Origin: Pseudomonadales bacterium
GTDB lineage: Bacteria > Patescibacteriota > Microgenomatia > UBA1400 > PJMF01
Direction of reading: 5' to 3'
Assembly (NCBI GenBank): GCA_020632255.1
Contig: JACKFX010000004.1
Coordinates: forward strand, 26,515-90,514
DNA: 64,000 nt
Shown here: piece by piece, positions 12,953 to 17,774 of the stretch
Layout: each line of letters opens with the position of its first letter
Numbering within the stretch: position 1 is the first letter of the stretch
Translations under genes and position numbers: made by a program
Notes under the pieces: generated by a model
Told to the model about the DNA's origin: nothing
Seen by the model: the letters and a program-made list of their open reading frames with translations, nothing else
Database searches by the model: none

Positions 12953-13003
12953 TTTTTTTGCACGCATAGCGCAGAAAAGTAGCCAGGGGAGTCGCATAAA
13001 AAT

Positions 13004-13771: not shown

Positions 13772-14045
13772 CTTCCTAGAGGGGAGTACACAGTGATTTT
13801 CTTACATTTTCATTTGCCTGGATTCCAGGCGGGAATTTTTGTTAGAGCAGAGGAGTTATCTAGAATTTCGGCCGGAGATAGAGGTGTGTTGAGGTCTTTG
13901 GGAGCATCAGCAAGTGGTGTGCTCGGGATTTGAGACAAATTTTTAGAAAAAAGTGTTGTTGGGAAAGAACGTACGATCAAAGCAAGAAAAGAAAAGGGAG
14001 AAGTGAGCAAAAAAATGTTTCAGTATGCCTGGTGGAACAGGGAAG

Positions 14046-14075
14046 TGATATAGTTTGATATAGTATGATATATAA
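14046..14075. repeat. Three tandem 10-bp iteron-like repeats: TGATATAGTT / TGATATAGTA / TGATATATAA
   Basis: Read directly from the sequence. The period is one helical turn. Confidence 0.6.
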
Positions 14076-14078
14076 ATA

Positions 14079-14141
14079 CGTGAAAACTGTGAAACTATAG
14101 GCCTAAATATGTGGAAAACTCAAAAACTATAGGACATATTC
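14079..14141. repeat. Two tandem imperfect direct repeats of about 31 bp. Consensus GTGRAAAACTnnRAAACTATAGGMC.
   Basis: …gtgaaaactgtgaaactataggcc… and …gtggaaaactcaaaaactataggac… lie side by side. Confidence 0.55.
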
Positions 14142-14154
14142 AGACATTTAATCA

Positions 14155-14172
14155 CCAGGCATATATGCCTGG
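14155..14172. repeat. Perfect 18-bp palindrome CCAGGCATATATGCCTGG
   Basis: Read directly. GC-rich arms with an AT-only centre. Candidate protein-binding or recombination site. Confidence 0.6.
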
Positions 14173-14223
14173 AGCATATTTTAATCATGCCTCAGAGCAG
14201 AACAAGTCTGTACAACGCGGAAA

Positions 14224-14664
14224 CTAAACGCTTAAACTTAGCCTGGACCACCTCTGGGGATGGAGGTGCCCGATGCAAGAATAAATAAAACCCGAAGCGG
14301 TGTTTTGGAGAGTGTCAAAATTGAGAGTCTTAGGGAGCCATCACTAGAGAGAGCGAGAGCGAGCTAAACGAGCTATTCATGATTATTTTCTATACTTTTT
14401 TTGTTAACTTTGTGACAGATGAGCGGCGGGAGAGAGAAAGCCCCCTCTTTTGCGAGGTGCCCATTCCCATAAATCTGTTATGTCGCACAATATAACTTTT
14501 ACGACATTAAACCAAGTAGTCACGAGACTGCTATTTCACACATCTATTTTTTATGGTTTTTATTTCTAGCCCCTAATCCTCTGATGTTTGTATGTTACTT
14601 TTTTTACTGCTTTTTTATCTTGTCTTGTCCCCCTATTTGTCCGACGCGGTTTTTAAGCGTTTAG
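14224..14664. repeat. 13-bp perfect inverted-repeat pair flanking about 415 bp. CTAAACGCTTAAA at 14224 and TTTAAGCGTTTAG at 14652, each preceded by ACGCGG.
   Basis: Read directly from the sequence. Confidence 0.55.
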
Positions 14665-14722
14665 TGAGATCGCTTCTTTTCTGAAGGCTGTATTGGTATG
14701 TGGGAAATATTGTGCGACATAA
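14477..14722. repeat. 16-bp perfect inverted-repeat pair flanking about 213 bp. TTATGTCGCACAATAT at 14477 and ATATTGTGCGACATAA at 14707.
   Basis: Read directly. The enclosed segment is strongly pyrimidine-rich on the plus strand. Confidence 0.6.
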
Positions 14723-15001
14723 AATTAGTTGTTTTTGGTTGATTGGAGTGGTGCAGTGGTTGTGCTGTCTGCGTGCGGCGGTAATACTGGGCCAACTGTG
14801 TGTGAATACGTTGCAAAAGAGGCTTCATACCAGGCTAAAAGCTATTTAAACGCCCAAAATCGGCTTTTTATTCTGCGACTGATTGATTGGTCATTGAAAG
14901 AGCGACACTTGTCACAATGTGAAGTCGAAATGAGCTACACGTATGCTTTTGTGTCGTAAAATATTGTAAAGTGCGAATGGGTACTGTATAGTGAATGTAC
15001 T

Positions 15002-15937
15002 ATGGCAATTCCCACACAACCGCAAGCATGTATGATTACCTTTTTGGAACATTTGGAAGTTGAACGAAATGTTTCTAAGTTAACGCTTCGTAACTATGGT
15101 CAGTATTTGCGTCGGTTGTCAGATTGGCTCAAAACCCATGACGTGAATGATATTCGTAAACTCAACCAGGATTTGGTGCGTGAGTACCGTGTGTACTTGT
15201 CTCGATATGAAGATGACTTAGGACGGACGCTTTCCAAGAAAACCCAGGGGTACTACATCATCGCTTTGCGTTCGATGCTCAAGTGGCTCGTCAAGAACGA
15301 TGTGCCAGTGTTGCATCCAGAAAAGATTGATTTACCCAAGGCGGAGTCGCAGCATATGAAGTTTTTAAACACAGAGAAGATCGAAAAACTCCTGGCGCAA
15401 CCGTTGTTATCCTCGAAAACGGGACTTCGAGACCGCGCTATACTCGAGGTGTTATTTTCAACTGGGTTACGTGTTAGTGAGTTGGTGTCACTCAATCGTG
15501 ACCAGATTGACATCAAGTCCCGTGAGTTTGGAGTGATTGGTAAAGGCCGCCGCCCTCGAGTAGTCTTTTTGAGTGATGGGGCAGCAGAGTGGTTGGATCG
15601 TTGGCTGGTTTCTCGAGATGATCAGTGGCGGCCTGTCTTTATTCGCTTTGCAGGCAAAAAGCCAGATATCACCGAGGATGGTGAGAACATGCGCCTAACT
15701 ACCAGAAGTGTGCAGAGAATTGTTGACAAGTATTGCCGCAAGGCTCACTTGCCTATCAAGATTAGTCCGCACGGCATTCGTCACAGCTTTGCAACTGATT
15801 TGCTTTCGAATGGAGCAGGGCTCCGAGATGTTCAGGAGATGTTGGGACATAAAAATATTTCGACCACGCAAATTTATACGCATGTGACTCGCCCACAGTT
15901 AAAAGAAACTCACAAGAAGCATCATACCGATTTATAG
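15002..15937 (+). CDS. Tyrosine site-specific recombinase, XerC/XerD family
   Basis: N-terminal SAM-like core-binding domain plus the catalytic R…K…HxxR…Y set (LFSTGLRVSEL…; HGIRHSFATDLL…GHKNISTTQIYTHV). Confidence 0.88.
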   Translation: MAIPTQPQACMITFLEHLEVERNVSKLTLRNYGQYLRRLSDWLKTHDVNDIRKLNQDLVREYRVYLSRYEDDLGRTLSKKTQGYYIIALRSMLKWLVKNDVPVLHPEKIDLPKAESQHMKFLNTEKIEKLLAQPLLSSKTGLRDRAILEVLFSTGLRVSELVSLNRDQIDIKSREFGVIGKGRRPRVVFLSDGAAEWLDRWLVSRDDQWRPVFIRFAGKKPDITEDGENMRLTTRSVQRIVDKYCRKAHLPIKISPHGIRHSFATDLLSNGAGLRDVQEMLGHKNISTTQIYTHVTRPQLKETHKKHHTDL

Positions 15938-16126
15938 TATTATTTGTATATTTTATTATATATTTCTTTATATATTGATATAGAAAAAGAGTTATCTTCC
16001 ATTTAGACTCCTCTTCTCCTCTGGTGATTGCCAATAATAAAGGTGCTATATGATTTTTTTCATGTGATGCTATTAATATCAATATATATCTTAGTATGTG
16101 AAAAGACTACAAAAATAGGATACTTT

Positions 16127-16582: not shown

Positions 16583-17389
16583 TTATGGTTGTGTTGGAAA
16601 TTGAGCGACTTCTTCTTGGCGATGCTTCCAGAGTCGAGTAGCCAGTGCCCTCCCCTGCGGGGTGACGAAGTAAGAATCAAGATCGGTTTGAAGATTTTCG
16701 AGATAGGTTTGAGGGTTATTGATCCCTTTGCGATAGACGTCCTGCCAGAAGTTGAGTTGTGTAAATGACCACAAGTGATCAAGATCGACGAGGACCTGGA
16801 CCTCAAGCGGAACAGCTGTGCCCTCTTTGGCGACTTTTTCTGGTTGGTCATGATGGCGGATGGCCAGAAGAATCAGATCTTTCTGGGCCTCAGAAAGTGA
16901 AAAGCTCTTGCCGTAGGATTCGAGTAGTTCGGTTGCTAGTGCCACCCCTTCCACGGCATGTTTTTCTTTTGGACCGAGCGCGGTTGCGTTGAGTTTAAGA
17001 CCAGAAACGCCCAAGCTAGCGGCGACTTCTTTTTCGCTGAGTCGACTCCATCCACAGTCATGGAGAATCAGTGCCAGTGTGACCACTGTTTGGTCAATGG
17101 TACGGCCGGGATGAGCCGCTTCAACAGCGTAGCAGAGTGGTTGAATATATTGGCAACAATTGGCAGTGTGGACATCGGTTGTCCGCGCACTCAAATGTGG
17201 TAGTACCTTAGAAAAAAAAGTTTGAAATTTTTTGGGAACCAGCTGGAGAAATTTTTTTTGCCAAGGAATATACAGTAAAAAGTGGTGATCTTTTGCTGGT
17301 AACGAAGTCTCGGCTGGATACTCAAGAATGACAGATTGTGGGAGTGTGATTGAGGGATACTCAGTGAAGGTAAGAGTTTGAAATTGCAT
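16583..17389 (-). CDS. HD-domain phosphohydrolase. The tracked ORF (to 17680) runs through the tRNA, so the real start is MQFQTL at 17389.
   Basis: H…HD motifs (ILHDCGW, AIRHHDQPE). The upstream part of the tracked ORF simply translates the tRNA. Confidence 0.6.
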   Translation of the reverse strand: MQFQTLTFTEYPSITLPQSVILEYPAETSLPAKDHHFLLYIPWQKKFLQLVPKKFQTFFSKVLPHLSARTTDVHTANCCQYIQPLCYAVEAAHPGRTIDQTVVTLALILHDCGWSRLSEKEVAASLGVSGLKLNATALGPKEKHAVEGVALATELLESYGKSFSLSEAQKDLILLAIRHHDQPEKVAKEGTAVPLEVQVLVDLDHLWSFTQLNFWQDVYRKGINNPQTYLENLQTDLDSYFVTPQGRALATRLWKHRQEEVAQFPTQP

Positions 17390-17396
17390 GAGTATG

Positions 17397-17470
17397 TGGA
17401 CCTGAGGGGATTTGAACCCCTGACCTCCTGTATGCCATACAGGCGCGCTAGCCAACTGCGCCACAGGCCC
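17397..17470 (-). tRNA. tRNA-Ala (anticodon GGC)
   Basis: The reverse complement folds as a cloverleaf: GGGCCTGTGGCGCAGTTGGCTAGCGCGCCTGTATGGCATACAGGAGGTCAGGGGTTCAAATCCCCTCAGGTCCA. The G3:U70 alanine identity pair, the GGC anticodon in a 7-nt loop, and a TΨC arm GGTTCAAATCC are all present. Confidence 0.88.
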
Positions 17471-17774
17471 ATGTGTTTTTATTTTTAACATGACTATTAG
17501 TATACCATCCTTCTTGAAGAATTTATAGAGGTGTGTGGTTAAATAATGGTTATCGGACATTAGCAGACACTTTTTATGACTGCTAAAATTGGGTTGATGC
17601 TCTTTTTCTTGATACACCAGGTATAATTGCTGGTACTTACATGTGTAGCTGGTGTGTACACTGCACACGTGTTTCCTCAAGAAAAGTTATTTTCAGAGAA
17701 GCCATTGGCACAAGAGCACGTTTCATTTTTTTGGGGTAAAGGAACAAGAGAAAAGTGTGGAGGTAAAACAAGGA

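Follow-up and report, generated by a model that had tools for sequence, protein, structure and literature searches.

What do two perfect inverted repeats do beside a recombinase gene? The question is raised by a 64,000-nucleotide stretch of contig JACKFX010000004.1 (assembly GCA_020632255.1), hereafter called the window, in which a 1230-bp noncoding gap (13772-15001), by far the largest gap in the window, lies between a gene for a DUF5656 membrane protein on one side and a gene for a 311-amino-acid tyrosine recombinase on the other. The gap holds two interleaved perfect inverted repeats (IRs), IR-A and IR-B, and a preliminary description of the sequence had proposed that they bound an invertible DNA switch, either an inverton or a shufflon-like system, operated by the neighboring recombinase. 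Our analysis points to a different role. The gap most probably contains the chromosome's dif-type site, and the lone half-sites that accompany this site most likely bind extra Xer recombinase and do not serve inversion. We assign this reading a probability of roughly 80%.

Alignment of the gap with 80 related loci by BLAST left one short segment that was kept almost everywhere, 14478-14507. This segment contains a 28-bp core site on the plus strand (14480-14507), composed of a left arm, ATGTCGCACAA (14480-14490), a center, TATAAC (14491-14496), and a right arm, TTTTACGACAT (14497-14507). A pattern search recovered the ATGTCGCACAA-TATAAC-TTTTACGACAT site exactly once in 68 of the 80 loci, at 0.4-2.4 kb upstream of the recombinase gene (xer); among the 12 loci without it, at least 8 have too little upstream sequence. 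The loci with the site belong to Pacebacteria, Woese-, Gottesman-, Shapiro-, and Beckwithbacteria, among others. Over the 68 loci, the two 11-bp arms are imperfect inverted copies of each other and nearly invariant, and variation is concentrated in the 6-bp center, where it follows lineage (TATAAC, TATTAC, TAATAC, TATACA, TGTATC, and others). In the alignments, the core site stands as an invariant island. It is unique in the window and occurs once per ∼13-kb locus. The 11-6-11 layout and the position beside xer are the anatomy of a dif-type site.

Variants of the site were also seen. Five Microgenomates loci (L054, L056, L057, L058, and L061) carry the complete 28-bp site in inverted orientation with respect to xer, and in two metagenome loci (L148 and L154) the same arms lie 11-12 bp apart instead of 6 bp, which recalls the long center of difSL.

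The recombinase gene (15002-15937, plus strand) encodes a protein with a Pfam Phage_integrase domain and a SAM-like N-terminal domain. It scored 241 bits with the NCBIfam XerC model and 240 bits with the XerD model, both below the equivalog cutoffs, and we therefore refer to it as Xer-type without assigning it to XerC or XerD. Scores were 199 bits with the XerA model, 117 bits with the XerS model (cutoff, 267), 52 bits with the XerH PDB chain, and 45-46 bits with the models for Fim-type and tyrosine-type DNA invertases (cutoffs, ∼221); the closest PDB match was Escherichia coli XerD. Orthologues with 57-89% identity came from 80 genome bins, assigned to "Candidatus Pacebacteria" and to further Microgenomates within the Candidate Phyla Radiation (CPR). 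This conservation, together with the model scores, indicated that the protein is a housekeeping Xer-type enzyme and neither a dedicated invertase nor the integrase of a mobile element. No second xer gene was found in the 64-kb window, and no ftsK was found among the window genes examined. A consensus scan predicted an xer promoter with a −35 element TTGTAA (14964-14969) and a −10 element TATAGT (14987-14992), separated by a 17-nt spacer.

How do the inverted repeats relate to this site? IR-B is a perfect 16-bp repeat: TTATGTCGCACAATAT stands at 14478-14493, its reverse complement occupies 14707-14722, and 213 nt separate the two; length and spacing were as first described, and only the left start, previously given as 14477, had to be shifted. 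IR-A has its left arm, ACTAAACGCTTAAA, at 14223-14236 and its right arm, TTTAAGCGTTTAGT, the reverse complement, at 14652-14665. Its perfection and the 415 nt between its arms likewise held, but it measures 14 bp, one base longer than the 13 bp reported before. In agreement with the preliminary description, the arms are interleaved in the order A-left, B-left, A-right, B-right, each IR-A arm is preceded by ACGCGG, and 280 bp separate the end of the repeat block from the recombinase ATG (15002). The two ACGCGG copies (14215-14220 and 14644-14649) stand 2 nt ahead of their arms. Each of the two sequences occurs at only its two places in the window, even with 1-2 mismatches allowed, and no other long-range perfect inverted repeat of at least 14 bp is present in the whole window. 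When the 1230-bp gap was simulated 3000 times with a first-order Markov model, perfect inverted repeats of at least 14 bp appeared in 9 simulations and of at least 16 bp in none; neither IR-A nor IR-B is expected by chance.

The left copy of IR-B (14478-14493) is the left arm of the core site plus half of its center. What makes it one half of an inverted repeat is that the left arm recurs, alone and in reverse orientation, 213 bp farther to the right. This inverted lone half-site (14705-14722, minus strand; AAATATTGTGCGACATAA on the plus strand) consists of the left-arm copy followed by TAT(TT). Its center matches that of the core at 4 of 6 positions, and no right arm was recognizable beyond it. 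The 16- to 18-mer of the half-site is invariant in five species (the window, L012, L013, L014, and L134) with flanks of ∼70% identity, and its spacing from the left arm of IR-B is nearly constant in the same five species (213-218 nt). An invariant 18-mer at a near-constant distance from the core points to purifying selection on the right copy of IR-B.

Extra half-sites are not peculiar to the window: they lie between the core site and xer in 33 of 70 related loci, and lone left-arm half-sites are 57-fold enriched in this interval (0.47 per kb, versus 0.008 per kb elsewhere in the loci). All but 3 of the 37 extra half-sites are direct (34/37), and the inverted form occurs only in the clade of the window; the inverted geometry is thus not the conserved feature. 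A metagenome scan for the 18-mer added ∼20 more distant CPR loci with a lone half-site within ∼60 bp upstream of xer, some of them adjoining a TATAAT-like element. In the window itself, a third arm-like element, GTGTCGTAAAA (14951-14961, plus strand), abuts the predicted xer promoter and forms a conserved island in the alignment of the window with L012 and L013. The most economical reading of these sequence patterns is that the lone half-sites are additional Xer-binding sites, which most likely would act in xer autoregulation and/or in the architecture of the region. The link that the preliminary description had drawn between the repeats and the neighboring recombinase survived, the IR-B unit being the predicted binding arm of that enzyme, but the mechanism proposed for it, inversion, is not supported.

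FtsK-orienting polar sequences (KOPS) and archaeal short polarized sequences (ASPS) converge at dif. When oligomers were searched for a strand bias that flips at the core site, the heptamer AGGGGAG was found: in the window and 70 related loci, 201 copies are directed toward the site and 21 away from it. To the left of the site, plus- and minus-strand copies numbered +89/−6 in plus-strand genes and +13/−3 in minus-strand genes, and to the right +14/−51 and +18/−88, respectively. Since the bias holds in genes of either strand, it is neither a ribosome-binding-site nor a coding-strand effect; a Shine-Dalgarno cause was rejected for this reason and because the copies in the window lie mostly inside genes. 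The flip is sharp, the 500 bp on the left side having +38/−3 and the 500 bp on the right side +3/−18. The window alone had 8:0 copies to the left of the site and 4:12 to the right; the nearest left copy (13780-13786, plus strand; another copy at 12985-12991) and the nearest right copy (16650-16656, minus strand) both point toward the site. In this, AGGGGAG behaves like KOPS and ASPS, and it is a candidate for a KOPS-like motif that would orient FtsK in CPR bacteria. The genes of the window also converge on the core-site region. The GC skew of the window is positive on the plus strand throughout 1-64000 and only halved to the right of the site.

The site is also present outside bacterial chromosomes, which adds a third independent line of evidence for a dif-type site to its layout beside xer and the convergence of AGGGGAG. 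Scanning viral contigs of IMG/VR with the pattern GTCGCACAAT-N4-CTTTTRCGAC revealed the full site in 33 contigs (L161-L193), for example at L163:3481-3504 and L173:272-295. About half of these contigs are only 4-7 kb long, and at least 20 have a gene for a Zot-like ATPase, the morphogenesis protein of inoviruses (PF05707, phrog_197). A tyrosine-recombinase-like match was obtained in a single one, a 40-kb contig, and was weak (25% identity). Elements without an integrase that integrate by means of host Xer are known, such as XacF1 (PMC5666396) and filamentous phages generally (PMC7307601). The site-bearing contigs resemble these integrative mobile elements exploiting Xer (IMEX; CTXphi, XacF1, and others) in being small, Zot-encoding, and inovirus-like and in carrying the full host-type site without a recombinase; they differ in being uncultured contigs, known from their sequence and not from integration junctions. 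We consider them candidate Xer-exploiting filamentous phages of CPR hosts, with the host assigned from the site sequence only.

Taken as a dif-type system, the locus would operate as follows. Two monomers of the adjacent Xer would bind the two 11-bp arms of the core site and exchange strands across the 6-bp center between sister copies, by which chromosome dimers would be resolved. Integrase-less filamentous phages would borrow the same site, and the lone half-sites may hold extra Xer monomers, which would allow the enzyme to regulate its own gene and/or to build a looped structure at the core.

This arrangement has counterparts in several known systems. Like XerCD/dif of E. coli and Bacillus subtilis, it combines a 28-bp site made of two 11-bp inverted arms and a 6-bp center, A-rich and T-rich inner arm ends as in GGTGCGCATAA-TGTATA-TTATGTTAAAT, an XerC/D-like recombinase, G-rich polar motifs that converge on the site, and integrase-less filamentous phages that carry a copy. 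In contrast to XerCD/dif, only 0.5 kb separates the recombinase gene from the site, one xer was seen (64 kb checked), the arms have other sequences, lone half-sites occur in addition to the core, and the GC skew has the same sign on both sides of the site. In XerS/difSL of streptococci and lactococci and XerH/difH of Helicobacter and Campylobacter, as here, site and recombinase gene form one conserved module; dif beside the recombinase gene is the published pattern for both, and the difSL-xerS module has been proposed to be autoregulated by binding close to the promoter (PMC1914069, PMC5357621). The enzyme described here, however, has 311 amino acids and is XerC/D-like rather than ∼355 amino acids long, the center is 6 bp versus 11 bp in difSL, and the site lies ∼0.5 kb upstream (0.4-2.4 kb in relatives) instead of immediately adjacent. 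Archaeal XerA/dif shares the single Xer and the 11-6-11 site, which is sometimes next to the gene; short polar ASPS motifs are skewed toward archaeal dif, which is not always opposite the origin (PMC5357621, PMC2958812). The present locus belongs to a bacterial lineage, within the CPR, and its recombinase scores higher with the XerC and XerD models than with the XerA model.

Several observations weigh against the dif-type reading or are left over by it. The GC skew keeps its sign at the site and only drops, from a mean of 0.137 to one of 0.046; in 51 of 54 loci, the left side has the higher value. The locus lies ∼13% from a contig end in three contigs of 0.85-1.17 Mb (L018, L019, and L045). 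The uniqueness of the core site per genome is a count over the 64-kb window and the 13-kb loci only. The dif-type reading does not account for the conservation of ∼620 bp around the site (13997-14616) between species at ∼70% identity, for the half-site being inverted in this clade and direct elsewhere, or for IR-A (simulation P of ∼0.003), which is a lineage-specific repeat with neither arm conserved in sister species.

Could the site and its half-sites act together in a more elaborate way? Core dif, the inverted half-site 225 bp away, and the promoter-proximal arm might form a looped Xer complex that would either gate recombination independently of FtsK, as at the plasmid resolution sites cer and psi, or allow rare inversion of the T-rich segment. 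As at cer/psi, conserved noncoding DNA extends over a few hundred base pairs beside an Xer core, and a higher-order complex is possible. The accessory elements here are Xer-arm half-sites and not sites for ArgR, PepA, or ArcA, however; no accessory proteins are known, and the location is chromosomal. We regard such a complex as improbable. If its rare-inversion variant were true, the dif region of the chromosome would itself be a regulatory switch.

Slightly less probable still is that the right copy of IR-B is an evolutionary scar, i.e., a hybrid attachment (att) site that dates from an earlier integration, excision, or rearrangement of an IMEX and has no present function. Inovirus-like elements with the site do exist, half-sites are frequent between site and xer, and a good left arm followed by the first center bases and then unrelated sequence is the leftover pattern of integration by single-strand exchange. 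However, an 18-mer that stays invariant between diverged flanks and at a near-constant distance from the core argues for selection, integration yields direct and not inverted repeats, and no phage genes were found in the gap.

The genuine invertible switch of the preliminary description fared somewhat worse, and we consider it very unlikely. In such a switch, Xer would recombine the core with the inverted half-site (IR-B), and/or an enzyme would act on IR-A, and the expression of xer or of the membrane-protein gene would change as a result. The repeats do share with invertons (fimS with FimB/FimE and those of Bacteroides) and with the Xer-like inversions of Mycoplasma and Ureaplasma that they are short, perfect, and near a tyrosine recombinase gene. 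They are also statistically unusual and interleaved, the right copy of IR-B is kept inverted at fixed spacing in five species, and in Ureaplasma, phase variation by inversion has been linked to Xer-like recombinases (PMC3599477). A conserved module in the gap, block g (described below), has changed orientation during the evolution of Pacebacteria. Against this stands the lack of a second orientation: five independent metagenome assemblies, each from a different run and spanning the block, were 100% identical to the window and in one orientation, although, these being assembled contigs, a minority orientation could escape. Orientation was also the same in the four sister species L012, L013, L014, and L134. 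The T-rich tract to the right of the core (14508-14704, plus strand) lies on the same strand in 27 of 27 aligned Pacebacteria, including those that lack the right copy of IR-B.

A consensus scan for promoters found nothing promoter-like in the segment enclosed by IR-B (14494-14706) and one weak minus-strand match (9/12) in the IR-A segment. The IR-B segment is 44% T and 63% pyrimidine; T runs are present locally, but calling it strongly pyrimidine-rich had somewhat overstated the case. The partner of the core in IR-B is a half-site that lacks a second arm and differs from the core center at 2 of 6 positions, extra half-sites in other loci are predominantly direct, IR-A is not conserved, the recombinase is a housekeeping orthologue, and, as a further difference from invertons, there are no variable surface-protein genes. 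A shufflon-like system is contradicted by the repeats themselves, which are two unrelated pairs in a gap without a conserved open reading frame (ORF) and not several alternating copies separating coding segments for a pilus tip. With a single orientation and no promoter in the IR-B segment, the inverton and shufflon models both fail in what defines them.

Two independent metagenome contigs end in the arms of the repeats, one (L011) at 14657 in the right arm of IR-A and one (L005) starting at 14718 in the right arm of IR-B. Such ends could speak for a switch if they reflected branching of the assembly at an inversion; this was rejected, since they do not lie where an inversion branch would put them, and they may be due to coincidence or low coverage.

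A further possibility, that the repeats are helices of a large structured noncoding RNA, transcribed from the conserved ∼620-bp block and with the interleaved arms forming a pseudoknot, appears highly unlikely. The block does align between species, with conserved islands in fixed order and at variable spacing, some hairpins contain G-U pairs on the plus strand, and IR-A of L012 is still pairable at 10 of 14 positions with 3 double changes (hand count). Nevertheless, the gap gave no Rfam match at the gathering threshold or at an E value of 10, and the RNAalifold consensus was weak (−39 kcal/mol over 801 columns, with an unfavorable covariation term) and left out IR-A. IR-B never varies and hence offers no covariation. 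For IR-A, 69% of cells can pair across five clade members, which is no better than shuffles. At inner arm positions 7/22 of the site, all base combinations occur, many of them C-A, and folding of the upstream 70 nt revealed no clear strand asymmetry (plus strand more stable in 41/70 loci). That half-sites are direct in most lineages and that the full site occurs in phage genomes also speaks against an RNA. In L012, a 22-nt inverted repeat (82%) bounds the conserved block; as a closing helix of a large RNA, it was rejected, not being recovered in the window or in most relatives.

A miniature inverted-repeat transposable element (MITE) or other multicopy mobile element, which the preliminary description had named as one finding that would overturn a switch, can be dismissed as well, as within the window the repeats are not multicopy, no target site duplication was found, and the enclosed DNA is orthologous in sister species. 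A replication origin was rejected because the gap has one conserved DnaA-box-like 9-mer but no DnaA-box cluster, the genes run toward the region and not away from it, and AGGGGAG is polarized as at a terminus. Coding potential was limited to short, unconserved ORFs; a 76-amino-acid ORF (14729-14959) had no family match, and its region aligns to L012 and L013 only with several indels. Scans of the gap for tRNA and transfer-messenger RNA (tmRNA) genes gave no match.

For the dif-type site, we found no description in the literature of a CPR dif site, of a segregation-polarity motif in these bacteria, or of Xer-exploiting phages infecting them. The 28-bp site, the candidate KOPS-like motif AGGGGAG, and the integrase-less inovirus-like contigs would be three usable tools, with which the point of polarity convergence could be marked in CPR genome bins, assemblies checked, and filamentous phages linked to CPR hosts. 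The locus also illustrates that a perfect inverted repeat beside a recombinase gene can be a core site plus an accessory half-site and not a switch.

Two further conserved blocks lie in the gap. Block b (13997-14145, plus strand) is found ∼340-480 bp to the left of the core and includes TGATATAGTTTGATA, a DnaA-box-like element, TGTGGAAAAC, and two copies of AACTATAGG. It is conserved across Pacebacteria with TGATATAGTTTGATA invariant and two AACTATAGGAC units; its DnaA-box-like element reads TGTGGA(A/T)AAC and is a perfect TGTGGATAA in L012 and L013. At ∼190 bp to the left of the core site there is another island, AACCCGAA, which has a hairpin. Block g (14815-14905, plus strand; core, CAAAATCGGCTTTTTAT) is found in either orientation in different species. 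It is a ∼75-nt module with the core CAAAAWCGGCTTTTTAT, a small hairpin, and a T run; most Pacebacteria have it to the right of the site, at a distance of 130-410 bp, and its strand, plus or minus, varies by lineage (examples, L030:5321-5367 and L016:5357-5398). Between species with opposite orientations, the 50- to 75-nt module alone is inverted or alignable.

Just downstream of xer lies a perfect 13-bp AT-rich inverted repeat, TATATATTGATAT, at 15969-15981 and 16076-16088, with 94 nt between its arms. Farther downstream, a mechanically called 365-amino-acid ORF with an HD domain (16583-17680, minus strand) overlaps a tRNA-Ala(GGC) gene (17396-17470, minus strand), and the real start of the ORF must therefore be downstream of the tRNA. 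Within the gap (13772-15001; 1.23 kb), CCWGG, mostly as GCCTGG or CCAGGC, occurs 7 times, compared to 1.4 per kb in the window. Several of these copies form short hairpins or long-range complementary pairs, and their flanking bases covary between the window and L012.

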